Source: Microthyrium microscopicum
Taxonomy: Eukaryota
Assembly: GCA_010405405.1 (NCBI GenBank)
Contig: MU004230.1
Span: 2,328,627 to 2,392,626, forward strand
DNA: 64,000 bases
Reading direction: 5' to 3'
Of this stretch, positions 43,147-64,000 are shown piece after piece. The position numbers and the translations under genes were made by a program. The notes under the pieces are model-generated. The model was not told the DNA's origin and ran no database searches. It saw only the letters and a list, made by a program, of their open reading frames with translations. Positions within the stretch are counted from its first letter, which is position 1; each line of letters opens with the position of its first letter.

Positions 43147-44815
43147 ATGTGGGATCAGCTGGAACCAACGGCGCCCCACGTCACATATCTCACGATATCA
43201 ATATTCCTCATTATATATGCCCTTTTCTCGGTCTTTATCAGGGACAAGCTCCATCTCTCAGGTAAGAAGCCACATGGCTCATGAAGCGTCATAAGGCTGA
43301 CTCACTACTCAGAACCTCCTTTGGCTGTTTTGTATGGCATCGTTCTTGGTCCACATGTTCTGAAAGTTATCGTTCCCAACGATTGGGGCTTTAATGATGA
43401 GATCCTCCAAGAAATTACTCGTATCATTGTCGGTATCCAATGCTTCGTTGTTGGGATCGAGCTGCCAAAGCTGTATTTTGGACGGTAAGGTTTTTCCCTG
43501 TGAAATCGAGTATCTCTTGACAACATTGGATGAACTCAAGAACATCGTTTCTCTATCGCACTCGGCGGGTGTTTCAATGTTTCACCGCAAAAGACCTTCT
43601 AGTCTTTCCAGGCGCGTTAGCGTTGATTGTGATCTTGTACTGACGAATTTCAGTCATTGGGAATCAGTACTTTACCTCCTGGGACCGATCATGACGTTTT
43701 CATGGGCTGTAACATCAATACTCGCCTACATCATTTTCCAGTGTTCTGTACCTACTGCAATGATCATTGGGGCTTGCCTCTCACCCACGGATCCCGTCTT
43801 AGCAGCCAGCGTCCTCTCAGAATCACACTTCAGCAAGAGAGTTCCGAAGCGGCTTAGGGATCTCTTATCCGCAGAATCAGCCTGCAATGACGGAGTCTCC
43901 TACCCGTTCCTTTACATCGGTGTGGTGGCACTCAACTATTCTCACAATGCAGGCGAAGCATTCAAGGAATGGTTCTTGATTACAGTCCTCTGGCAATGCG
44001 CATTTGGTATTTTTTCGGGAATCATTATCGGCAACACTGCCAATAGAGTTCTCCGCTTTTCAGATGGACGAGGCTACATCTCGAGACCATCATTCATCGT
44101 GTTCTACCTCCTCCTGGCTATGCTCAGCATCGGCGTTGGATCAACTCTTGGCACGGACGACTTTCTGGTGGCATTTGGAGCAGGCGTTGGTTTTGCACAT
44201 GATGGCTGGTTCAGCAAGAAGATCAAAGATGCACCATTCCCAATCATCGTCGACCTGATTCTCAACAGCAGCATGTTCGTTTTGTTCGGGTCTATTATAC
44301 CATGGCAGATGTTCCTGCCTCGAGAAATCACGCCTCACTGCGGGATATGGCAGCTCGTCCTGTTCCTCATCCTCGTCTTGCTATTCCGACGTATCCCGAT
44401 CGTGCTAGCGATGAAGCGCTTCATCCCCGATGTTCGCACGTACCGTGAAGCGCTCTTCTGCGGCCATTTCGGGCCCATGGGTGTTGGTGCATTGTTTCTT
44501 GCTATGGAATCTAGAGCTGAGCTCGAGAACGGGACTTCAGTCCCGTGGGGCAAGCCGAGGAAACTGACTCCACCATTCAGCAACAACGACAAGGCAATTG
44601 AGCTGGTATGGCCAGTAATTTGCTTTGTGGTGTTCGGAAGCACGTTCGTGCATGGTTTAAGTACGCTGGGTATCAGCGTCGTCGGACATTTCAGTCGCAA
44701 AGAGGGTGAGAGAGCGCCACTTTTGGCGCAACAGACGGATGGCCTTGATTCAATGGTTCATGAAGGCGGTGGTGGCGAGAGCGAGCCGGAAGTCAGTGGT
44801 AGTGATTATGAGTAG
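43147..44815 (+). CDS. Plasma-membrane Na+/H+ antiporter (Nha1/Sod2 family, CPA1)
   Basis: MWDQLEP start; IRDKLHLSEPPLA; PTDPVLA; ESACNDG; GTDD; RRIP; GHFGPMGVGA; VHGLS. Introns ~43262-43311 and ~43484-43653. Confidence 0.93.
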
Positions 44816-45097
44816 GCTGCATTACTCCGAACTGGAGTCGTAGCAATTTCCATGGCAAGAGTCATGACATTTAAGACGTCAGCGTTTTAATATGTTTCCC
44901 ACATTTATCGGATTCGAGAGTAAAAATTATCCTTCATTGTTCAGTTCATCAGCTCTGGAGCTAATTCTTAAGGTCCAAGCCACAACAGACTTCTATGTAT
45001 GCCGATGTGGCTGTCATACCTTCAGTAGCCCATATTGGACAAACAACACCCCAAGAGATACAATATGTGTTCACCATTGAACCACTGCCTCAATTTT

Positions 45098-45703
45098 CTA
45101 TGCCAACTTTCGTCCAGTCATCTCTCGCACTTCATTGTCAATTTCTCCCATAAGTACATCGAGAACCTCGAAGCGGAACGTCGGATTGCAGCCGTCCAAG
45201 AGTGTACGGATGGTTCTAAAGTGACTCTGCAAGTAGTTAGTGCTCTTTCCGTAGACTGATGTTGGATTCGGCGTGCCGTGCTTTTCTGCGTCCAGAATCG
45301 CAGTCACTTCTCTCATTGGCATGTCGTCGGGGAAGTTGCCATGCTCATCCAAATTGCCCTGATATGAGGTTGCGACTCCTTGTCCGGTGGACTCTGCCAG
45401 TGCGATAGCTGCCACTGCCTTGTCGATCTTTTTGCGCAGGTTCACAATCAAGATCTCGATAGTAGGGTCGAACGTAGGTAGTGGCATGGGACCAAAGACC
45501 GTTGGTGGCATTGCTGGATCATTGGCGGCGACAGATTGCTCACTTGAATTGCTGTTTTGCGCTTGTTCTTTGATGTCGGTGTCCTGGGCGATTGGAGCCT
45601 GGACATTATGCCCGTCTTGATGAGACGGTTCATCACCAGAGTTGATAGTGTCGCCGATAGCAGAGCCCTTGCTCTGCTTGCTTTGTGGGTGTTCTTCAGT
45701 CAT
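45098..45703 (-). CDS. Orphan hypothetical protein (201 aa, starts MTEE)
   Basis: Intronless ORF, good Kozak context (GCCATG), TATAAAA ~85 bp upstream, acidic/helical composition. Confidence 0.65.
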   Translation of the reverse strand: MTEEHPQSKQSKGSAIGDTINSGDEPSHQDGHNVQAPIAQDTDIKEQAQNSNSSEQSVAANDPAMPPTVFGPMPLPTFDPTIEILIVNLRKKIDKAVAAIALAESTGQGVATSYQGNLDEHGNFPDDMPMREVTAILDAEKHGTPNPTSVYGKSTNYLQSHFRTIRTLLDGCNPTFRFEVLDVLMGEIDNEVREMTGRKLA

Positions 45704-46495
45704 GGCGATTGGTTGGCAATGTATGGTGGATAGTTTCGCTTCAGATGTTTGGTGTCTGTGTGATGGGAAGAGGGAGGAGAGGGCCTTTTATACTTCAAGA
45801 CTTTGAGAGAGGCCTGGTAAGGCGTCAACTCTCCTATGCTTCCTTCCTCTTCTGGCACTCACTTTTCACTATGCTGGAGCCTCACTACTTGACCAGGCAA
45901 CAAGTCTCAAGCTCTCAACTCGCTCCTCAATCAATTGAAAGAGCCTCGAGTGCTACCTGAAAAGGCAGGCAAACTTTATGACCTGTCATTCAAGGGTTCA
46001 TTCTACCAAGGTGCATAATATTTCAAGATATTTGAGAATAGCTATGAACAGGAACTATCCTGGAATTTCAACACCATCGAACATACAACAATCTATGGCG
46101 AATTGCTTGGTAAGTTTTTTTTCGCTACTTATCCCTTCAACTGAAATAGAAAGCCATTCAAGCAGTGCCATTCATCTGAAGCGATTCTAGGAGACTATAT
46201 ATACAAGCTGTTCCAGCTTTCTCGATCGTGGGCTTGATGAGAATAGTCCATCTACAAGAGCATCTGCGTGTTTTCCTGCGCCTGACTTGGTCTCATAAGG
46301 TTACAGGATGGTCACCATAAGGGAGCTGGTCAGCCGGGCTCGGCCACTCGCCCTGCGTACGACACAGGAAGAGCTGACGGCAAACGGACGTTTGTCTTCG
46401 CTAAATGTAGTATTAGCTTCTGCAAATCTGATAACACAGGTATGGGACACATCATGCTTGCTTACCTCAATTACAAGGCCCATAGACAGCAGGAT

Positions 46496-47029
46496 TCAGC
46501 GAACATCGTCTTCTTCGTTGAACATACAAAACTGGTGTGTGCTCCATAGGAAACCTATAGCACCATCTGCAAGAGTGAGTATGAAATAAATGGTTTCATA
46601 ATCGCAGATGTCCAGATTTGGGTGCGCCATGTAGGCTTTTGCCAGGTCAACTTCTGCCAAGATACGATTCAGATACTGCCGGGAGTAGATTGGTTGGCCT
46701 GGTCGCTCGTCAAGTTCGTCATGAGTTATATCGTATGGATATATAGCTCCTTCGTGCTGCTGTGCTAGAGAATGTATCGACTTATCCACGTCCTTGAGAA
46801 TACTGTCAATCATAGTCCATAGGTCTGTGATTTCTTCTTCAGTGATGGGGACCTCATGATCCTCCACAAGAGGAGGTCGGATGAGGATGACAGGACGGTG
46901 GATTGTTTGATAGTCTTCGTCGTCGATCTCAACCAGCTGGCTGGGGTCAATTGCCCAGTTGTAACTGGCGATGATTTGTTCTGTGGTGATTTCATTGCCA
47001 TCGACAATTGGCGGTAGTTCCTCTCTCAT
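46496..47029 (-). CDS. Orphan MREE-family protein, paralog A (177 aa)
   Basis: Aligns by eye to 47612-48178 and 49349-49876 (LDERPGQPIYSRQYLNRILAEVDLA). Confidence 0.8.
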   Translation of the reverse strand: MREELPPIVDGNEITTEQIIASYNWAIDPSQLVEIDDEDYQTIHRPVILIRPPLVEDHEVPITEEEITDLWTMIDSILKDVDKSIHSLAQQHEGAIYPYDITHDELDERPGQPIYSRQYLNRILAEVDLAKAYMAHPNLDICDYETIYFILTLADGAIGFLWSTHQFCMFNEEDDVR

Positions 47030-47611
47030 GGCGCCAAAGACTTTGAAGCGATTTGTTTTGTGGATTGGCGGTTAAGGGCCGAAAAGATGAGAAGCAGGGG
47101 AGTTGGAGAAAAAGAAGCTCATGTCGAATCTCAATCGACTATATAGGGACTGCAACCTTGAAGAGGTGCGCGATAATCTTCACTACAAGGAGATGCTATA
47201 ATTCACCCAAGGTTGTTCCATATAGGCATCCTCATAGGGAGTGAACGTGCAGTCACTGCGCAAATTCAGGTGCTATTTACCTCAACTGAACCCGGCTCTT
47301 TTTGGTCGATTGCGGCAAGTAGAGTCTTGTTTGAGAGCCTTCACTGTTGATTCTATGTAAGGCTCAGAAATGGCTCAGATTTTGTCGTACAAGATTGAGC
47401 AAGTTGTTGGCCGCGCCAGGTGAAACTATTTCTTCGGGGTATGGATTGTGTAGAGCTGAAAGCAATCAATGATGACACTGCTACCTGGAGTATTAGCCGC
47501 CGTGCCATATCAGGAAGCAGAATTGGGAACGTAATATCAGCTTACTATCAATCCTGTCATGCCATTTCGTATGAGACGACTGCCACCAAGACCAATATTT
47601 TACAGCAGTGT

Positions 47612-48178
47612 TTAGACGAAGTTGTTTTCGTCTGTAGGAGCTTGGGTCCAGTTTGACATCTGATACTCGAACCACATTCGCGATGCAGCTCTCTGCGCTG
47701 TATAGAGAATATCAAGAGCAGGCACATAACGTGACTGCGCATCCAGATCTGAGGTCAATATGCGCGTCTCCGCCAGATCAACCACTGCCGCTATACGTTC
47801 CAAATAGTCTATTGAGAGAATCGGTTGACCGGGCAGCTGGTCAAGGCTGTCATGGTCCACTTCTTTCGTAACTTTAAAGTCCTCCCGCTCGCGTAAATCA
47901 ACAACCTTCTCATATACCTGGTCGACAAGGTCGTCAATCTCATTCATAGCATTTGCGATTGCTTGTGCGGTGAGGGGTTCCTCAGGTTCGTCCTCAAGTC
48001 CGTTCTGCATCTCTTCCAGATGAGGAGTTTGAACAAATCTCGCAAGATTTCGATTGAGATCAAGGTCTGGATCGATCGCCCGCAGCTGGTTGGGATCGAT
48101 CGACAGGTTATAGAAAGCGATGATATCTTCTGCGGTGAGTTCTCGGCCCGCCACGGTCGGTGCTTGTTCTTCTCTCAT
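47612..48178 (-). CDS. Orphan MREE-family protein, paralog B (188 aa)
   Basis: MREE..G.E.T.E.IIA.YN..IDP.QL shared with paralog A; LDQLPGQPILSIDYLERIAAVVDLA. Confidence 0.8.
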   Translation of the reverse strand: MREEQAPTVAGRELTAEDIIAFYNLSIDPNQLRAIDPDLDLNRNLARFVQTPHLEEMQNGLEDEPEEPLTAQAIANAMNEIDDLVDQVYEKVVDLREREDFKVTKEVDHDSLDQLPGQPILSIDYLERIAAVVDLAETRILTSDLDAQSRYVPALDILYTAQRAASRMWFEYQMSNWTQAPTDENNFV

Positions 48179-49348
48179 GATGCCGAAGCTTTGATATACA
48201 TTTGTTGTATGTGCTGTCTGTAGCTACTACCTACGGAGCTTGGAGAAATTCCGAAGTCGACTTGTTCCGGTTTGACAGGATGAGTGTTTGGAGAGCCGAG
48301 GAGATAGAAAGAAGGAGATCTGGAGAAGAACAAGTTAAATTAAATCTCCAGAAGCCTTATAGGAATCGCGATTTGAAAGAAGAGGTGCGCAATCATTTCC
48401 ACTACAGGACGGACGCGATACTTCACCTCAGCTTGTTATATAGGTAAACTTCCAAAGAGATAAACTTGAGCTACTTCGCAGTTTGAGGTGCCAACAGCTT
48501 CAATTTGGACGACCTGAATATCCCAATTGAGACTATCAAAGATCTACTCGGCAGCCTTATCGCATGGTCGTAATCAAGATCTGGTATGTACATGCCGCGC
48601 TCTAAAATTTCGAATCTACTCATAAAACGGTTTGTAACGGTCTTGTAAAGATGATCAAGGAGTGAAGTTTGGGAACCATTACGTGAGATGATGTCGATAT
48701 TTTAAACGTGTACAACTTGTTTGCCTATATGCTATTGGAAATTCCTGCTCTTAGTCGATCTGATTGCGTTCTCCTTCCCGGTGCTTTGTGTCAATGTCCA
48801 GTGCCAATTTCCTAACTAAAAGACTACTGAAAGATTTCTATATTGACGATAACACGAACAGAGGGCCATCATTATAGTTATTATTCTGCCCTCTACCATA
48901 TGAAAGCAATTGGTCAATCATGAACTCGGATAGGTTTGATTATGATGACCTACACGCAAGCAATGCTGGTGGACTTATGTTTGTTATGTCTTCATTGCTC
49001 ACACCTACTCTAAACTAGATATCAATGCTAAGTTTAATAATGTTATATTGCTAGGGAGTGTGCAGGGAGCATCACTTCGAGTGGTTTGGATAATTTCTAT
49101 TAGGCCATGATAGTTGTTCTCCTTTTCTCGAACCACATCCGTGATGGACCAAAGGACTTCTTGGGCAAAGTCGTCCAAGTTTTGCGATTTCCAGCTATAT
49201 ACATAGGATTTCAGGGCTCTTCTAAGTCAAAATTAGAATCTAGATCACTATCGTTCGCGTTCAATGCAAGGGGTCACTCGCTTCTGCGCGCCGGAGGCCT
49301 CTTTCATAAAAAATAGATGATACGATATTCAGAAATTGGGCTCAACCA

Positions 49349-49876
49349 TCATTCGCGTGGAAGCCGACTCATGATTGCCTCATGATAAATTGACCACGGA
49401 CCAAGTATCGCATCTTCCGCTGCAGAAAGTATGGACTCCGCAGTCAGTAGTCGGGAAGTCAGATTCAAGCTTCCGTCCGTCATGAGTTCTTTTGCCAGGT
49501 CCACTTCCTCCAATATGCGCTTGAGATATCGGCGCGATGTTATAGGCTCATTTTCCAGGTTTTGAAGGTCGTCACGTACGACTGGAACTGCATCTGCGAC
49601 TAAATCTGATCCGGGTTGTTGCAGAGAATCAAGCTGTTCGTTCACCGACGCAAGAAGCTCTTCGATGCTTTCGCGTGCTTGTGTGATCTCTTGGACTGTG
49701 GCAGCACCAGCTAAGTCCCCTCCGAATGGGCCGTTTAATGTTTGAAGAAGCGTGGTAGGAGGCATATTACCTGCCATCAGACGAGGATTAACAACTTGGA
49801 TGTTGAAACGGCTCATAATCTCGTTGGTCGTGGGCTCTTCGCCTGCCGCGTTTGTTGGAAGGCGCTCTTCTCTCAT
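49349..49876 (-). CDS. Orphan MREE-family protein, paralog C (175 aa)
   Basis: MREERLP..GEEPTTNEI; LQNLENEPITSRRYLKRILEEVDLAK; C-terminal IL..AE.AI...W like paralog A. Confidence 0.8.
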   Translation of the reverse strand: MREERLPTNAAGEEPTTNEIMSRFNIQVVNPRLMAGNMPPTTLLQTLNGPFGGDLAGAATVQEITQARESIEELLASVNEQLDSLQQPGSDLVADAVPVVRDDLQNLENEPITSRRYLKRILEEVDLAKELMTDGSLNLTSRLLTAESILSAAEDAILGPWSIYHEAIMSRLPRE

Positions 49877-50943
49877 GGCTAGGGTTTCAATAGTGCTCTA
49901 TACTAGGGACTGTGGATTGTGGAGCTGGTAATGGAGCTGGTAAGAAGGAAAAGAATTAAGCTTAGGCGTTCGGACCTTATAAAGGGTATACTTCACCTGA
50001 GCATGATCGTTAAGCTTCTGCCTTGGAGTATATGATGGAATCTAGTCACTTCGCGTCTCCAGGTGCCAGATATTCTGGGCAACTCAAAGTGAGCCATCCT
50101 CGTGGAGAAAGGCATAGTTCGGGCTCAATGGCTTTTTGTCTGAAGTAGAAAACATTATTTATATACAATGCATTGTGGTTCTCAGTCGCAGTATCGATCT
50201 TTTAGATTGTATTGAAGCACTCAGAAATCTGTCATTATGGATCTATACTTCAGTCAACTTCTTGATGGCCACTGATCTAGACAGATAATGTATATCGGCT
50301 TGCTAAGTAGGTCAGTAGGCACTCAAATATGTATTGCCATAAATAGTGGTTCTTTGTTTTTGTCTTTGTTCTACAGCAAACAGTTAAATCACTGGAACAT
50401 TCCCAGTTGCGAGTTGTCAAATTAAGTGAATGATTGCATACTATGAGAAAGGCAAATCTATTGAGATTATCGCACATGGTTTTTTTGAGCGCCCTTCCTA
50501 AAACCGGGTAAGGCATCTAGAAACCAGGAATCTCCAATAGTTGAGTGTTCGGGGTCGATGAGTGAAACCTGCTTTGTTCAACAATACTCATTTTGGATTG
50601 GGCTGAATGTAGAAGATACAAAAGTTGATTTTGTATGAGTCCTGAGTAGTCTGCTTAGCCCTTCATTCAGATTCAAGGCAGAAGAAAGTTTGTCGTTACA
50701 TACTGTTCAGTCGGAGCCTGATACCAAAAGACTACCATATGCCAGCACAATGGTCAAACAAACTGGAGTACAGACATTACTTCATTGTCTACTAGCTTAT
50801 GGTATTTGAACTGAGTACACTTTATAGCTCTCTCCGGAACCAGAAGGGCAAGTACTGGATAATTGAACACATTAAGAAGAAGAACAGAGCAGTGTTGAAA
50901 TGAAGAAGTTCGTCCTATCACCTTTAGGTTCTCTGATGATACC

Positions 50944-51714
50944 TCAGTCCAAGGGTGCATCCAAGTCCTGCTTCTGCTCCGCCGCTTCTTGCTCATTGCC
51001 AAGAAGCTCTGCTGCTCCTTGCTCTTGAACATTTTGCTCAACTGTCTCTTCTTGAGCTACCGTCGTGCCTCGACTTGGCGACTGTCTCTCCAGGATGAGC
51101 CTGAACATCGTTGCCGTCGAATCAAACCTAATCCACAGCTCATCAATGTTTCTTTGCGACTGAGTTATACGTGCCTCTGCATCGGCGATCACTCTGTCCA
51201 TACTAGCAAGTCGTGAACGTACACTCCCAACTCTTTGGACAGTCGTAGCGAAATCTAGCTGTGCAGTGATACTGTTTTCTGCACTGAAAGCAAGTCCCAA
51301 GGCATTTTGGGCAATAAGAGCTTCCAAGCTGGCAAGTCCTGTTCGTAATTCCGCATCTAGTCGATGCCAGACAGCTAGCGCCGCGATCATGTGGATAACA
51401 TCCGACTCCTGGTCGACAAGGACGGCCTGGGAATCTAGCATATCAGTTTGGAGGGCTCTGAGTTGCGTGGCGTATGGACCGGGAGGAATGATGGACGCCT
51501 CAAACAGAGTACTTCTGGGACTGAACGCCACGGCAACTTGAGGAGCTGGTGTACTAGTAGTGGCGGAGTTTGTATTGAGAGGGTGTAAAGCGTCTGAAGG
51601 AGTGGCCTGAGGTTGTTCTTCTGGGACCGCGGCGTCAAAGAGTCGGTTGATATTGTTGATGATGTCCTCGGCGGTGGCATTGCTAGGCTTGTTGGCAGAG
51701 CTTTTATCCTTCAT
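50944..51714 (-). CDS. Orphan coiled-coil hypothetical protein (256 aa)
   Basis: Intronless ORF, CATCATG start context, heptad-like helical C-half. N-terminal TAEDII is identical to paralog B. Confidence 0.7.
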   Translation of the reverse strand: MKDKSSANKPSNATAEDIINNINRLFDAAVPEEQPQATPSDALHPLNTNSATTSTPAPQVAVAFSPRSTLFEASIIPPGPYATQLRALQTDMLDSQAVLVDQESDVIHMIAALAVWHRLDAELRTGLASLEALIAQNALGLAFSAENSITAQLDFATTVQRVGSVRSRLASMDRVIADAEARITQSQRNIDELWIRFDSTATMFRLILERQSPSRGTTVAQEETVEQNVQEQGAAELLGNEQEAAEQKQDLDAPLD

Positions 51715-52063
51715 GATGGATGATGGGTGGATTGATGGATGGGCAAACTAAAACACCCGGTGGAGTATTCAGACTTTTTACCACATGACTGAAGTGGAAG
51801 AAGATGGAGTAAATCAAGAACTCGCAAAATCCGTGGAAATGTACTCGACTGTTTTGGCTCCCAAGAGGTCTGGTGTGCTCTTGCCTCAAGCTGCATGTTT
51901 ATCTCCCACATTTTGGGAAGGACGACCAATGTGAACATCCGTTTGACAATTCCCACTCGATTTTTTAACTTTGCAAGAACCACACATTTCAGATCGCAAT
52001 CTTGGTTTATCATGGGTTATATTATACTGGTTAGAATTGACAAAACAGTCCGCTCGTTAGATA

Positions 52064-52609
52064 TCAGCGAATAGTGTGATACCAGACAAAGCAAACAAAA
52101 TAGAGGAACCCCAGAACGCGTAGCAACTGATGGTATGGCGCCCACTTCTTCATTCTCTTCAACTCCGCTTCGAATTCCGCGAGACCTTCTTCGCAATCAA
52201 TTATCGCTTCTGTCATAGCCACAGTAAGCATTGCTTGCGCCATGCCTTCCAGAAAAGGATCCCGATGTTCAAAGTGTGCCAGGGAAGAGGATGATTCATG
52301 ACTTGCAACAAGGCCGTCCCAGAGTTGACGTAGATCCGCGAGGGGAGCTGCGCCGGGCGCATCTTCACCTGGGTGGTGAAGTCGGGATAGTATGATGTTG
52401 AAAATTGTATCGGCATTACGAGGGAGAAGCTCTGTCGTGTCCGCATAGAATGCCGCCGCATGTCTATTGATACGATTGAAGTTGGCCGCTGGGGAGACGG
52501 GGATGGTGGGCATGGTGGTTACTGCAGGGTCGAATTGTTCGTCGAGCATCTGGAGGATCGGAGGTACCATGACTCTCATTCTCTTGGTAGGATATTGTTC
52601 TTCCCTCAT
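52064..52609 (-). CDS. Orphan protein starting MREEQ with hydrophobic C-terminal tail (181 aa)
   Basis: MREEQYPT resembles MREEQAPT of paralog B. C-terminal LLRVLGFLYFVCFVWY is a possible tail anchor. Confidence 0.7.
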   Translation of the reverse strand: MREEQYPTKRMRVMVPPILQMLDEQFDPAVTTMPTIPVSPAANFNRINRHAAAFYADTTELLPRNADTIFNIILSRLHHPGEDAPGAAPLADLRQLWDGLVASHESSSSLAHFEHRDPFLEGMAQAMLTVAMTEAIIDCEEGLAEFEAELKRMKKWAPYHQLLRVLGFLYFVCFVWYHTIR

Positions 52610-53051
52610 GATGTGGGATGCCAGGAGTAGGTGCTGAATGCCGAGTACTGGTATGCATGACTTCGTAAAAAGAGAGTAAATGAGAAAACGCTCACCGACA
52701 ATTTGCTTTAGCAGCCTCAGACTTGAGCATACCTTCCCATGTACACATAGGTCTACAACATTTCAGGCAGTTACGCGGGAAGTTGAAAGGAGCAACGGCA
52801 CAGCCTTGCAGTTGCAAATATTCCCTCCGAAGCTTTGAACGTTCACACTCAGACTTGAAACAGATGAAAACAAGTTCAAGCAAGTTTGTATATTTGGCAA
52901 GTCTCTTCATATGATTTATGACACCACGCAACTACCATCAGCTACATCAAGTCTCTCAAAGAAAGTAGACTCCCCCAGTAAGCCTAGGTAACCTTAGGCC
53001 TCTGATTCTTTGCTCCAAGGGCATTCCTTTTCCACACTCAATCTCTATACT

Positions 53052-53786
53052 TCAGCCTCCAAAATGCGGATTCTTTCCGCATTTTTCGATGCTGTCGAGC
53101 GGCAGTCGGTCCCATAGGAAAGCGTGAACAGTACGCACATCGTCTGTCATACTAATACCACGTACAGCCCCATGAATCTCCCGTTTCAGTCGACACAGCC
53201 AGGGTACGGAATCGGGTGGTTGGGAGATACCATTCTGGATAGCGAGCATATCTTTCGCCATCCAGTATCGTATTCGTGTTTCAAGAAATGCGCCTCGATT
53301 CTCAATGTCATCTCGTGGAATTTCCAGAGAGGCTGCGAGAGCAAAGAGCGGCTCCGTTCGTTTGAGCTCTACCCACAGTCTGCGATAAGCGTTTCGGTCG
53401 AGCTCAGGCGTATGTTCGGTGTTCTCTCCACGGCGATAGTTTTTGTAAATAAGTTCGGCAATGGCCATTACTCCGTAAAAGGCTGCATCCTCGGACTCAA
53501 CGTAACGAGCTCGCGCGCCAACAAAGGGATTGTGAATGCGGCGGTTGCGAATCTTGCGAGCGCTTTCGAGAGCGAGACGCTCAGCCGCTGGGCAATCTGC
53601 CTGAAATTTGTAAGTAGGAGTTCAGGACATGTTGTCATTTAGCCAACATTCGTTGAAAGGATCGAAAGATATTCCCAGCACGAATTCCCGGCATGCTATA
53701 TGGAAGCCATGGAGTGGAAATATAGCACAATATGAACCATATCGAGACAGGAGTTTTGTACGAGGGCAACTTACCATAAGTCTCAT
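53052..53786 (-). CDS. Orphan hypothetical protein, second family (intact copy)
   Basis: Micro-exon ATGAGACTTATG followed by GTAAGT; intron 53774-53601; then ADCPAAERL...NPFVGARARYVESED, open into track ORF 53052-53468. Homologous to 54514-55010. Confidence 0.65.
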
Positions 53787-54513
53787 GATGACTATAGTTG
53801 ATAAATGAGTGATGTTTGGAGGGCAAAGTGCGGTCCTTGAGAGGTTGACGATAGAATCGTGAGCTGCGGATTGTGAATCGGGTGTTGCAGATTGGAGTTG
53901 GAAGTTGCGTCTTGATGATTGAAAGAGGACATGAGACGTTTATAGCGGATCCGATATCTCTCAGTGACCAACTTTCGGTCACTTGTTCTGAGTTCAGCGG
54001 TCACCTATAGCCACGAGGTTGTTCCAAAGTGGAAAAAGACTGTACCTTTCAATTAGAGTAAGTAGGTGAGTAGAGAAAGAATTACGCACTCCTACTAACA
54101 ATCAATGAAATGCATAACGTATAACAACTAAAGGCCGGTCAGATTTAGTTCTTTTGAGTGATCCGAGGTAGACCTACTTCCAGTGCGGTATTCTAGTCAC
54201 CAGTGAACCAATCTTGAGTCTTTGACCTTCCGCGTCTTCCACCTCCAGTAAGCTCCTGATGTTACAGCTCAACCTGTTCATGATGTTGGTCATCTGTCAT
54301 ATCAATACCTCTCGTTGCTGCATCAAGCTGATGTTTCCGCCCGGATGGTGAGGCTGAGTGCCAGCTAGTCGCGGGATGGTGCCATTCAATGCCAGCAAAT
54401 CCTCAACCATAGCATACCCAATATTACATGGCAGCCTGACAGCCTCAAATGCCACATCTTAATCTTCCGGAGTCCCAAAGTACGAAAGTCTATGCTTCCG
54501 ACTATGGTATCAA

Positions 54514-55010
54514 CTAACCTTGGTTCCATAGCTCAGCATGCTCGACGCGCTCAGCATCCGTCATGGCCATGCCGCGTACCGCATCTTGCAGGTGTTCACG
54601 CATGGCAAAAGTCATTGAATCTTGAGGATGAGGTTGCGAAGTGCTATTGTTCAGGTAGATGTGTGCCGCGTTCAGATCATAAGAAGGTGCGTTTAGTGGA
54701 CGGCGTTGCAAATTGCTGTTCGGATACACAAGTGTTGCCGCAAGCGCAAAGTGTTGGTTCGCTCTGACAAGATCTGCCCATACTTGACGGTACTCTACAC
54801 CGCACGATTTACAGGCCCGGTCTGACGGTTCTCGCTTCAAGGGGTGTTCTATCGCTCATTACGGATGTCGATATCGTCCATTACTGCGGTGAAAGCCATA
54901 TCTTCGGACTCTACGAACTGAGCTCGTGCGCCAGCGAATGGATTGCGTTCTTGATGCAAGCGAGCGCGAACACGAGCACGCCTTTCTTGTCGTCGACAAT
55001 CACTCAAGGT
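54514..55010 (-). pseudogene. Disabled paralog of the 53052-53786 gene
   Basis: NPFAGARAQFVESED, YRQVW..L...FALAA.L and AVRGMAMTD match the neighbour. In-frame TAG and TGA near 54835-54850 and a frameshift interrupt it. Confidence 0.7.
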
Positions 55011-55291
55011 GGAGAGGTGGAGATGGTGGAGATAAATTCGAGGTTGAAGCGGCAGGTACGAAGGAAGTTAGTGAGTAGCTACCTAGGTAGTTGAGGAAGG
55101 GGCAAAATGCCAAGCCTCACCAAACAACAAATCTCCCAATCCGGCCAAACGTAAACACAACTTCAACATCTCCCGTCATCTCTCCCTACAATTCAACGAA
55201 CTCTTGAACCATACAGTCGGACAAACTCCCCAACAACAATCCTACATAACCATCCCACAATCAAAAGAATCAAAAACAAAACCCGCCAAAG

Positions 55292-56143
55292 ATGGCAGTA
55301 ACAACAACAACCACCACAACCACCGCGCTTGAACAACTCACCCTCCTCCAATCCAGCGCCTCCCTCTCCCTCCTCGACCTCGCCACCAGCTTCACAAAAG
55401 ACACCGCCCAAGAGCCCAGTGGGGCGCGCACCTCCGACGCATCCTCCACCTACTCCGACCCCGACGTACCCACACCCGCCAGTCTTGCAGCCGACCTAGC
55501 GCACTACAAAGAGCTCTTTGACAAACTAAGCTTCAGCTACATCGAACAAGTCACCAAAGAAAAGTTCTTACGCGCAATAACCGCTGAAACACCGCTTTTT
55601 ATTGAGCCTGCAGATAATGCGGCTCTGGAATCACAACTTGCGCTTGAAGAAGAGGAGTTGAAGGAACAGAAAGCACAGGTCGCGGCATTAACGCAACAAC
55701 TTGAGGCGCGGGGACGGGAATTGGCGACACGTTATGAGGGGCTGGTAGAGCAGGGACAGATGGTGCAGGATTTACCGGGCCATTTAGCGGAGTTGGAGGC
55801 GCAGATCGCGGAGTTGAGGGGGGAATATCCTAGTCCGGTGAAGAGTGGTGATGAGCAATTGAATTTGCCGCTCGCGGACACGTTGGTGCTACTGGCGGAG
55901 CAGCAGAAGGAGTTGGCGGAGACGGAGGCGCAGATTGCGGCGCTACAAAGTGAAGGACCAGAGCGAGCGAGGGAGTTGGCAAGGGTGGAGGAGGAGCTTG
56001 CTGGGTTGACGACGCAGAAGAAGATGGCGGTGGGGAGAGCACGAGAGGCGAGGGCGCGAAAGGAGGCGGGTGGTATTGATGAGGTTGAGAGAAGAGGTCG
56101 GTGGTTAAGAGCGGAGGAGGCGCTCTTGAGTGATTTTGTATAG
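55292..56143 (+). CDS. sos7: Kinetochore protein Sos7 (Spc7/Knl1 partner, coiled coil)
   Basis: ADLAHYKELFDKLSFSYIEQVTKEKFLRAI signature, then LNLPL, a long coiled coil and terminal RGRW. Confidence 0.85.
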   Translation: MAVTTTTTTTTALEQLTLLQSSASLSLLDLATSFTKDTAQEPSGARTSDASSTYSDPDVPTPASLAADLAHYKELFDKLSFSYIEQVTKEKFLRAITAETPLFIEPADNAALESQLALEEEELKEQKAQVAALTQQLEARGRELATRYEGLVEQGQMVQDLPGHLAELEAQIAELRGEYPSPVKSGDEQLNLPLADTLVLLAEQQKELAETEAQIAALQSEGPERARELARVEEELAGLTTQKKMAVGRAREARARKEAGGIDEVERRGRWLRAEEALLSDFV

Positions 56144-56490: not shown

Positions 56491-57906
56491 TTAACCTTGA
56501 GTTGTTGCATTCGACCATCTGACAGACGTAACCATCGTCTGCTCTGGCATATCCGTCATAGTAGTCCCAGATCTATACCCAATTAGCTCAATCTCCAAGT
56601 TGTTCTCCAATAACAACACTTACCCATCAGTAGTAGTCGTCTCCGGCGATTCAATCCCCCACTCTACAACGCTACTAACCACCGCCGCCGCACTCGTCTC
56701 CATCGACGCACTTGCTTCACCCAAGTCACTAGCCTCACCCGTCGCGCTCGCCTCACCCGTCACGCTCGCCAAACCAGTCTCGCTCACAACACTCCCATCC
56801 CCAACCGCACTACCCGCACTAACAAGAGCCACCGTCCTCGTAACATGCAACGTCACCGTACTCGTAGCCGTACTCGTCTCCTCACCCACGCCCATCGTAC
56901 TCGACGCATTCGCCAATATCGTCACCGTCGTAAACGGCTGATACACACTAACCGTCGTATCAACACTAACAAACGTTCTCAACGCCGTGATATCTGTACG
57001 TAGAGTCTCAACCAGTAACGCACTAGGCCCACTCATCGTCTCTGAGATCGTCACATGCAGTTCACTCGCGCTCGTGAGGGTGAGTGTATGTACTTCCCAT
57101 GTCTCTAGGGAGTCCTCGCAGGTTGTCCCGTTGGCGCTGAAATCGAAATCCATGTTGCCATTACTGCAGACGCGTACTGTAGCGGTGGATGGCGGTGTTC
57201 CAGGGTTGGTGAGTGATTGCCAGTCCGCGATGTAGAATGTACCGAATTCTGTGATTACCGGTGAAGGCGCTGAGGCGACTGTGGTCAAGCTCGCGGATAG
57301 TCGGAAGTCGCTGCTGAATGTGATGGGCTGGCTGCAGTTCGTCACGGTAAAGGCGGTAGCCACACCATTGAGCGTGGTGTGGCAGATTGGCGTAATGGTG
57401 GGCGAGTAACTTGTGCTGCAGGCGCTGGGATGCCAGGTTGATTCGGCAGACGACATACTGGCGATCGTGCGCGTCGCGTTGGTGTAGTAGCGCGAGACGC
57501 TGGCGCTCGGCAGCGGGCAGAGGCTGTAGTATGGAACGTAGGATGTTACGATTTGGCTTTGCGCTGTGATGGCGATGGGGTCAGCGCCCGGGGAGGGCGT
57601 GATGATTGTGTAGATTGGACGCAATGGGCCGCCTGGATTGAAACTCGTGATTGGAGTTGGGGAGAGAGTGTTGCTGGAGTCTGGATCTGGACCAGCCGCG
57701 TCGCCATAGACGGTTGTCGTCAAGTCCTCAGCAGCGTCGTCTCTGGCGCGTACACCAACTGCTTCGTGGCGATAGCGTAGGTTGGTTGGGCCATTGGCGA
57801 TGCTGTTCTTGCGTCCAAACAGGGCGCGGAGTGGATTGATAGCAATAGAAGAATCGATAAATGAGAGGACGACCAACAGTCGAATTGACTGCCGTCTAGC
57901 AAACAT
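56491..57906 (-). CDS. Secreted Ser/Thr-rich cell-surface protein
   Basis: Signal-peptide-like N-terminus; Cys-containing core (ITAQSQIVTSYVP, CHTTL, VTNCSQPITFS); S/T-rich tail. Intron 56573-56623 extends the ORF to TAA at 56491. Confidence 0.75.
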
Positions 57907-61449: not shown

Positions 61450-64000
61450 GGGGTTGCTTAGACCCTATTACTAAATTAGGTAGCGCACTACCAAAATTAA
61501 TAATAAGAGCTAGAATATAATAGAATACGTATAGATCTATAGGTAGATTACGTAAGATTATAAGATTTTTAGTAAGTATATTTTTAGGGTGCTATTAAAG
61601 TAAGATTTTAGTATTAATAGTAAATTATATATATTAAGACATAGAATAAGCTAAAGAGAAAGAAAATAACGCTAAATTACTATATTCTCCCTAATTCTTA
61701 GTATTTTAATACTAAACGTTAGTTACTATAAAATTACGCATTATATCCTAACCCCTTATAGATTAAATACTTCTATTAAATAATTGCTAAAGGTTAAATT
61801 AGCTACCCTACTTATTATCTCTTCTTCTATAAGAACTTCTACGTTTTTAATATATCTAATAGAAGAAGAGAAGGATTATTAGATATCTTAAGATTAGTAA
61901 TACTAATAGGCTTTATATAGAAGTTAGTTAGTATAGCATACTTATTATCTTCATCTTTATTAGCGTTAATATAAGCCTTCTTAAAGAACTTAATTAATTA
62001 TATTAAATATATAAAATTAATAAGATTCCTCCTAATAATAATAATAGCTTTAAATACGTATAAGTAGAAAAATTGCTTATTCTACTATCTATAGTAATTA
62101 TAAGTCCTAGAATTAATATTAATAGTATATTCCTTTAAATAAGAAGTATATTTTAATATACTAGTAAGAGTTATAAGATTAAAAGAATTAAGTATAATAA
62201 TAGTAACCTATTTAGAATAAAATAACGTAGTATTATAGAAGTATTAATTATAATAAGTAAAATCTATAGGCATAAGATATTACTATAGATTTAAATATTT
62301 ATAAATTTAATCTTTAGCTTCTTAATACTTAGAACGCTTTTTAATAATATAATTCTAGATACTATTTAAAAGAGGAATAAAATACTTATAATAGTAGCCT
62401 TTAAGAACTAAATTAATAATCTTAGTAGTATTAGATATTAACTAACTATAATACGGTATAAAAAAGTATTTATAAACCTATTTCTCTTTAGGTAGCTTTT
62501 TAATATAATTCTTAAAGTTAATAAAATAGTTAAGAGTATTCTATAGCATTAGATAGTTCTATTAGTAGATAGAATTATAGTTAACGTAATAATTAAGCTA
62601 TCTTAATGCTTATATACTAAAATTAGACTATATATTCTACTTAAGGTAAAAGAAATATTATCTAAGGGCGTAAACCTTAAAATTTAAGTCTAGCATATTT
62701 AAAAGACCTTAATTTTAATTAATAATTATAGTAGAGTAAAATTCTAAAAGAAATATAGTTAGATATAGTTAGATATTTTAAAGATATAATTAAGAAAGAG
62801 AAGAAAAAAAGAGCTAGAAGAATAGTAAATCTAGCTAGAAGAAAGTAAATTTAGAAACTAGCGCTAAGACTTATAAAGATTACTAATCTTAATACTAAGT
62901 ATTATGCGTCCTAGATATATATATATCTACTCTTATAACTTATTATTCTTACCTTTAAAGATACTAAATACGTAAATTATTATATTAGCTTTACTATTAA
63001 ATCTAGTAATAATAACTATCTTAGTATTATATTCTATTTTATAGTAAGTAGCATCTAAACTAATAATTTTAGGTAACTAAGCAAAAATTGCTTAACTAAT
63101 AAATAAATATATAAATACGTATTAAATCTACTTTATAAGAGCCTTCTTAAATATAATATAAATTTTAGGATTTACTTATTTAAGAGCCTTAATCTAGGAG
63201 GGAAGTATCTAATAGCTATTAAGGAATTTATTTTTAACTCTTCTAAATATCTTACGCTTTAGTTAAGATACCTATTAAAGAGTAATAGCCTAACCTATAT
63301 ATTTATAAATTATATTATAAATATCCTAATTTAGCGTATTCTTATTAAGAGCGCTATAGGCTTTAATAAGCTTCTTTATAATCTATAACTTTAAAGTATA
63401 TACTTATTATAAAGTAGTTCTTATTAAATAAGTATAGTCTTTAAGCGCGTTAATCTATATTAAAATCTACTTCTTCTTAGTAATATTAACGCATTTAGGA
63501 ATTAATTTTATAACATATACGCCCTATTTATAAGTATCCTTCTAATACTATTAGAGTTATTAATCCTCTCCTAAACCTCTCTTCTTATAGACTTTAAATC
63601 CTATCTTTACTACTATAAGATATAGAATAGTATTAATATCCTAATAGTTATTATATACTAAACTAACCTATAATTTCTTCTATAATTCCTTTTTATCTTT
63701 AGTAATACTAGTAGTAATAATAGAATTAATTAGTTTTAGCATTAGCATAATACTATAGATATTATTCTTAAAGAGCCTTAGGTATAGGAAGATACCTAGC
63801 TCTAGCTTATTATTATTAACGCTAGTAAGATTAATAAAGTTAATTTTAAGAAGAGGTACTAAATTTTTAATAAGAATAACATTAAAGTTTAAAGCTTACT
63901 TAATAGGAACATATCTAGATAAATATAAAAAAGCTATAGTAAAGTATAGGTAAGTAGATATAAATAAAATAAAGATATAATATCTTTTAAATAAATTATA
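61450..64000. mobile_element. AT-rich RIP-degenerated repeat or transposon relic, class not determinable; continues beyond window
   Basis: Abrupt drop in GC, very frequent TpA, near absence of CpA/TpG while some CpG persists, no ORF of 60 aa or more in the track. Confidence 0.88.

Follow-up and report, generated by a model that had tools for sequence, protein, structure and literature searches.

A co-oriented cluster of small orphan genes between a Na+/H+ exchanger gene and the Sos7 gene of Microthyrium microscopicum, probably shaped by tandem duplication and decay

Tandemly arrayed gene families can evolve by birth and death. Among filamentous ascomycetes, the closest described systems are the clustered lineage-specific genes (LSGs) of Neurospora crassa; the parts of Wang et al. 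(PLoS Genet 2023, PMC10684091) used here report 670 LSGs with a mean length of about 192 amino acids (aa) and introns in 515 of the 670, with >63% in clusters of 2-21 that lie mostly near telomeres, interspersed with HET-domain genes, and with most LSGs inactive in the sampled stages. A second study (Mol Ecol 2023, PMC11628664), in the portion used here, proposes that these genes arose by duplication, relocation and fast evolution. Here we analysed a 64,000-nt stretch of the genome of the leaf-litter Dothideomycete Microthyrium microscopicum (assembly GCA_010405405.1, contig MU004230.1, positions 2,328,627 to 2,392,626 of the forward strand; hereafter the window) and focused on an array of small orphan open reading frames (ORFs), g1 to g8, that lies between a Na+/H+ exchanger (antiporter) gene and the gene of the kinetochore protein Sos7.

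We compared the array with these systems. Like the Neurospora LSG clusters as described in those parts of the papers, it combines short proteins (175-256 aa here), a lack of homologs outside the lineage and physical clustering; unlike them, it is set between two housekeeping genes, a Pfam scan of 28 window ORF pieces showed no HET domain, six of its seven intact members are uninterrupted ORFs, and all members are co-oriented. Its likeness to birth-and-death arrays consists in co-oriented paralogs graded in divergence (g2 and g3 being closer to each other than to g4), in promoter blocks common to the youngest pair, and in a frameshifted copy and a fragment beside an intact gene; it differs from them in that g1, g5 and g6 are not assignable to a family by sequence. 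The array is thus a further case of the clustered lineage-specific genes already described in filamentous ascomycetes and not a new kind of system. We consider it probable that it is a lineage-restricted cluster of genes for small intracellular proteins, which grew by tandem duplication and lost members by decay. Its units are as follows.

45098 to 45703, minus strand: g1, 201 aa, start MTEE; acidic orphan ORF with no detectable paralog.
46496 to 47029, minus strand: g2, 177 aa, start MREE; family A.
47612 to 48178, minus strand: g3, 188 aa, start MREE; family A.
49349 to 49876, minus strand: g4, 175 aa, start MREE; family A, the oldest of the three.
50944 to 51714, minus strand: g5, 256 aa, start MKDK; acidic orphan, possibly a very distant family A member (N-terminal module).
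52064 to 52609, minus strand: g6, 181 aa, start MREEQYPT, family A-like; hydrophobic C-terminal segment.
53052 to 53785, minus strand: g7, 186 aa, family B; exons 53774-53785 (MRLM) and 53052-53599.
54265 to 54402, minus strand: short family B relic of the C-terminal motif (25-residue fragment), found by profile and tblastn.
54514 to 55067, minus strand: g8, family B relic in two frames, with a frameshift near 54855 and no ATG.

A preliminary description, made from the letters of the DNA, had placed eight minus-strand genes or relics between the antiporter and sos7, and we recovered them at those places as seven consecutive intact ORFs and a broken eighth inside 10 kb, uninterrupted by genes of known families. 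The starts it had given (MTEE, MREE four times, MKDK and MRLM) all recurred in the ORFs, and its size range of roughly 170-260 aa for intact members compares with a measured 175-256 aa. The spacing of about 1-1.7 kb was roughly right, with start-to-start distances from g1 to g7 of 1326, 1149, 1698, 1838, 895 and 1176 bp. By our own arithmetic, the probability that eight of eight units share a single strand is (1/2)^7 = 0.008. The six genes described as intronless, g1-g6, run as frames of 175-256 aa from ATG to stop with no interruption, a status read from the ORFs rather than confirmed by transcripts, and the intron of g7 was confirmed by a contig joint.

The interval contained seven minus-strand ORFs and one plus-strand ORF of at least 130 aa, compared with a mean of 0.34 (maximum 2) in 200 dinucleotide-preserving shuffles in which both strands were counted together; for ORFs of at least 170 aa, the count was 6 versus 0.05. 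A codon log-odds score was then trained on 15 long ORFs of the window. The results showed in-frame scores of 0.12-0.21 for g1-g7, with nearly all of their other frames negative (g1: 0.187 in frame, -0.10 to -0.32 in the other five frames), compared with 0.03-0.17 for the 15 training ORFs, which were scored leave-in, and -0.11 to 0.08 for 11 short control ORFs of the interval. The plus-strand ORF (156 aa, 53172-53642) lies exactly antisense to g7 and scored -0.01, and it was rejected as a gene and taken as a shadow frame of g7. Codon usage and frame specificity together indicate that g1-g7 are, as judged by composition, real or recently real coding sequences, and so strong a coding signature would argue against a very recent de novo origin, though not against an old one. 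It is highly improbable that most of the ORFs are non-functional, that is, decaying pseudogenes or chance frames in DNA transcribed by read-through or in antisense. The g8 unit is demonstrably a relic, as such an account expects; its pieces scored just 0.06, under the intact members, so the score registers decay where it has taken place, and the roughly 20-fold excess of ORFs over shuffles and the gene-like, frame-specific codon scores run counter to a non-gene origin of the rest.

All-against-all blastp yielded two groups only, g2/g3/g4 (family A) and g7/g8 (family B), and significant similarity did not extend to all members. The three members of family A showed 28-34% identity at expect values (E) of 1e-12 to 1e-23 (g2-g3: 34%, E 1.3e-23; g2-g4: 31%, E 1.2e-15), with Smith-Waterman z scores of 21-30 against 200 shuffles. 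By the Nei-Gojobori method, synonymous divergence (dS) was 1.06 for g2-g3 and 2.4-2.6 (up to 2.55) between g4 and g2/g3, nonsynonymous divergence (dN) was 0.62-0.72, and third-position identity to g4 dropped to 0.33-0.36. Upstream blocks were common to g2 and g3 (86% over 28 nt, plus TATA-like elements). The graded dS and the shared upstream blocks give a duplication order in which g4 split first, followed by g2/g3. Since the three frames remain open and align end to end past synonymous saturation, purifying selection on family A is implied, and the persistence of intact frames at dS above 1 likewise speaks against the non-gene account. No further copies of family A and no relics of g1, g5 or g6 were found in a window-wide scan with hidden Markov models and phmmer (2557 six-frame pieces).

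Family B comprises g7, the g8 relic and the fragment. The g7 gene consists of a four-codon first coding exon (MRLM), a 174-nt intron (53600-53773), confirmed by a contig joint in run X1 (described below), and a 182-codon second exon, and its spliced product is identical to a deposited Microthyrium microscopicum hypothetical protein. Blastp aligned g7 and g8 at 32% identity over 94 aa (E 1.5e-13), plus 73% over 22 aa; the halves of g8 lie in different frames around 54855 and its start codon is absent. The fragment at 54265-54402 matched the family B profile at E 0.0061 among the 2557 six-frame window pieces and by tblastn with 56% identity over 16 aa. The best-conserved part of the family is a basic stretch followed by NPFxGARAxxVESEDxAF (53500-53560 in g7, 54880-54945 in g8), the region in which intact gene and relic are 73% identical over 22 aa. 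NPF is a tripeptide bound by EH domains. The start context ATCATGAG, common to g7 and g3, was weighed as possible evidence of homology and discarded, since contexts of the ATCATGAG type are the usual fungal initiation context.

We then compared the members outside these two groups. The g6 start MREEQYPT resembles the g3 start MREEQAPT, and an alignment of the family A profile with g6 by hhalign covered residues 1-12 only (MREEQYPT..., E 0.012). An N-terminal test, devised post hoc once position-matched motifs had been noticed, compared residues 2-34 ungapped, at offsets of up to two, across 21 pairs with 2000 shuffles each. None of the 2000 shuffles reached the g5-g6 score; 12 reached that of g3-g5, 18 that of g2-g5 and 81 that of g3-g6. 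These results are suggestive of a chain from family A through g5 to g6 by way of an N-terminal module, whereas g1 had no match to g2-g7 by blastp, hhalign, Smith-Waterman or the N-terminal test. Families A and B are unrelated, and the array forms no single demonstrable family. The serial tandem duplication and rapid divergence that had been proposed for the whole array thus hold for g2/g3/g4 and for g7, g8 and the fragment, with two unrelated families instead of one and with g1, g5 and g6 unplaced.

The same data bear on another account, which we think rather unlikely but worth serious weight: that A and B were duplicated locally and that g1, g5 and g6 are unrelated young genes, born de novo or by rearrangement, in a permissive transcribed region. 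It fits the lack of significant full-length similarity of g1, g5 and g6 to any member, the clear separation of family B, which is basic rather than acidic, from A, and the plus-strand spliced RNA across g1-g2, which implies transcription of the region on both strands. It would also resemble the Neurospora 'rummage regions' of lineage-specific genes, and clusters of unrelated lineage-specific genes are described in the parts of the Neurospora papers used here (PMC10684091, PMC11628664). Yet g1, g5 and g6 have codon scores (0.13-0.19) as high as established genes do, which is unexpected for very young de novo ORFs; strand, size and acidic composition are common to the units; and the similar starts of g6 and g3 and the g5-g6 N-terminal score also count against it.

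Database searches returned no outside relatives of the array. A family A profile run against 1.84 billion representative proteins found g2, g3 and g4 only, plus one spurious match, a 3026-aa repeat protein that was rejected as a relative because it matched on low-complexity sequence. Word-index searches with g2, g5 and g7 among 5.8 billion proteins each returned the query alone. None of nine array pieces exceeded the Pfam cut-off, sequence searches of PDB with g1, g5, g6, g7 and family A gave nothing below E 0.18, and in the ESM Atlas the best feature scores (0.81 for g3, 0.77 for g6) were within the noise range, with structural template-modelling (TM) scores of at most 0.36. Scans of metagenomes gave 599 pattern matches for family A and 37 for family B, of which tblastn confirmed 0, and Rfam, tRNA and tandem-repeat scans gave nothing relevant. 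Among the matches listed, the titles and opening lines of abstracts of papers that name the organism do not mention the locus. The earlier label 'lineage-specific' agrees with every search run; the large protein databases were queried with family A, g5 and g7. Microthyrium microscopicum belongs to a sparsely sequenced order with few close relatives sequenced. Given this sampling and the set of genes queried, 'lineage-specific' here can only mean absent from the data at hand.

The predicted proteins were examined next. The g1-g6 products are acidic (isoelectric point 4.1-5.6, 0-2 cysteines) and g7 is basic (isoelectric point 9.1). Across the array, the first 25 residues had a mean hydropathy of -0.2 to -1.4, each protein contained 0-3 cysteines, and all 19-residue hydropathy windows were at most 1.3 except at the g6 C-terminus (1.63). 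The earlier statement that no member has a signal peptide or a recognised domain held, with hydrophilic N-termini and no Pfam match throughout; a signal peptide with several cysteines, as in secreted effectors or small cysteine-rich proteins, was not found by this simple hydropathy check, which used no dedicated predictor. Residues 162-180 of g6 (52064-52125) form a hydrophobic C-terminal stretch that includes an arginine and is unique among the members; it could be a tail anchor.

An AlphaFold model of g2, built with the three-sequence family A alignment, had a predicted local distance difference test (pLDDT) score of 50, with the first 58 residues mostly unconfident and helices at 64-91, 117-134 and 141-176; the g6 model was all-helical. 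The top Foldseek rows for the g2 model were generic three-helix bundles (TM score 0.63-0.73 by target). The C-terminal half superposes on antiparallel three-helix bundles such as Fap1 NR-alpha (2kub/3rgu) and the designed sc-apCC3, with E values of 0.4-1.8 and 10-16% identity. The modelled likeness is one of shape only and no evidence of kinship or function. We infer, as the weakest step of our account, that the array products may be non-enzymatic intracellular helical binding proteins.

Another reading takes the array for a fast-diversifying genetic-conflict system, be it for allorecognition, for meiotic drive by a killer and its antidote, or for self/non-self recognition of another form; the conserved N-terminal module and the variable helical C-terminal halves would then reflect diversifying selection. 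The preliminary description had noted that such an architecture is often associated with conflict or with stage-specific functions such as sexual development. Nothing observed here speaks for these functions beyond circumstantial points, namely the rapid divergence of tandem paralogs, the orphan status and the turnover implied by a relic beside an intact copy. Drivers of the wtf type carry transmembrane segments; by hydropathy, no such segments occur in the array proteins, Pfam scans of the nine array pieces and 19 other ORFs showed no domain associated with conflict, whether HET, NACHT or another, and dN is not above dS, all of which make a conflict system very unlikely. A bolder version, in which g2-g6 form one hyper-diverging family whose N-terminal module, about 30 residues long, is conserved while the helical C-terminal domain varies freely, and which serves intracellular recognition or killer-antidote functions (allorecognition, spore killing), we regard as very unlikely. 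If it were true, an arms race still under way in a little-studied order of fungi would have left the array, the relic and the antisense RNA as its traces.

Transcription was assessed in a single run, X1, which we presume to be RNA and whose contigs are identical to the window. All seven joints listed for these contigs carry canonical intron ends, as spliced RNA would, and the contigs are strand-informative at introns only. The flanking genes and the two contigs that reach the array are as follows.

43394 to 44815, plus strand: left flank, final large exon of the gene for the Na+/H+ exchanger (Pfam Na_H_Exchanger, E 3.9e-43); the spliced contig yields a 482-aa ORF.
55292 to 56143, plus strand: right flank, Sos7 kinetochore gene (Pfam Sos7, E 3.1e-25).
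44816 to 46790, plus strand: X1 contig record 1 past the exchanger stop, antisense to g1 and to 295 nt at the 3' end of g2.
52922 to 55042, minus strand: X1 contig record 2, spliced, from the g8 relic through two 50-nt introns and the intron of g7 to g7 itself.

In record 2, the joints 54127/54178, 54039/54090 and 53599/53774 all read CT..AC on the plus strand, and the leader of g7 is made up of pseudogene g8 and the region of the two 50-nt introns. Its end at 55042 sits 137 bp from the start of the plus-strand Sos7 contig at 55179, and this short gap suggests a divergent bidirectional promoter shared by the g8-g7 transcript and Sos7. In record 1, the exchanger exons continue for about 2 kb past the stop codon, with a longest plus-strand ORF of 93 aa there, and an intron at about 46109-46189 (joint 46108/46190) has GT..AG ends on the plus strand with the donor GTAAGT; at least part of the RNA that covers g1 and the g2 3' end is thus antisense to them. 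This extension is either a very long spliced 3' untranslated region or a separate antisense non-coding RNA. Contig cover was absent at 47009-47509 and 48011-51016, which includes g4, and bins over g3 and g5-g6 had a depth of 0.2-1.6, neither of which allows an inference on expression or silence. Co-regulation of the array, which had been thought possible, was unsupported in this run. Two of these features lend something to the view of the ORFs as non-genes, namely that the plus-strand intron is the sole strand-informative feature over g1/g2 and that the g7 contig begins so near the Sos7 contig with a leader full of upstream ATGs.

Several results weigh against a cluster of protein-coding genes grown by tandem duplication. 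No full-length comparison ties g1, g5, g6 or g7 to family A: Smith-Waterman z was at most 2.6 for every pair outside family A, and the hhalign probability against family A was 3.5% for g6, 0.4% for g5, 0.3% for g1 and 0.1% for g7. In the N-terminal test, z 2.0 was also obtained for g3-g7, presumably an unrelated pair (80 of 2000 shuffles), and after correction for 21 pairs g5-g6 alone survives, in a test that was post hoc. The pairwise dN/dS of about 0.28-0.58 leans on saturated dS. The g7 frame stands behind a 1156-nt leader with 24 upstream ATGs, the g1-g7 proteins are predicted only, and over g1 and g2 the sole splicing in X1 is antisense. The structure models are poor (pLDDT 50 for family A, 44 for g6), and Foldseek of the g2 model against PDB gave 0 rows at E <= 0.001.

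The array did not stand out in composition from the window as a whole, with a guanine-cytosine (GC) content of 0.47 versus 0.48 and a composite index for repeat-induced point mutation (RIP) of -0.65 versus -0.70, compared with +1.38 in an AT-rich block at 61500-64000. That block starts some 6.5 kb beyond the right end of the array, has a GC content of 0.19-0.21 and carries a strong RIP-type signature (TpA/ApT 1.50, (CpA+TpG)/(ApC+GpT) 0.12). RIP as a driver of family A divergence was rejected, as the array shows no RIP signature. No recombinase or transposase Pfam family was found in the ORFs scanned within the window, and a transposon, Starship cargo or RIP-mutated repeat was rejected in the absence of any such family, of a RIP signature and of deviant composition. 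Nine of the 17 other long window ORFs match ordinary Pfam families, including PLD, hydrolases, PRMT, Rav1, ZIP, a nucleoside deoxyribosyltransferase-like family and an amino-acid permease. To the right of Sos7, a minus-strand ORF of 428 aa (56620-57906) is Ser/Thr-rich, with a hydrophobic N-terminus and no Pfam match, and its product resembles a secreted or cell-wall protein; an intron at the 3' end of the ORF is marked by a contig joint (56572/56624).

Under the reading that we favour, of growth by tandem duplication and loss by decay, the cluster would have expanded in units of about 1.1-1.8 kb and shed members as they decayed. The g5 and g6 genes, and less surely g1, may be older products of the same process that diverged past recognition, because they share strand, size, spacing, an acidic cysteine-poor composition, the MREE..P start and the weak N-terminal module. 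Family A proteins might consist of a disordered acidic N-terminal half and a C-terminal three-helix bundle of about 110 residues, a tentative picture drawn from the models. As no catalytic signature was seen in family A, protein binding is the most likely activity, and the partners could, with low confidence, be cytoplasmic or nuclear proteins, probably bound under particular conditions.

The array offers a compact and bounded example, within a single locus, of the expansion of new protein families, their divergence past recognition and their decay. With three recognisable paralogs, two or three possibly older members, and family B present as an intact gene, a frameshifted copy and a fragment, it is a convenient test case for methods that separate 'diverged beyond recognition' from 'born de novo', and a single 10-kb deletion would take out every known member of family A.

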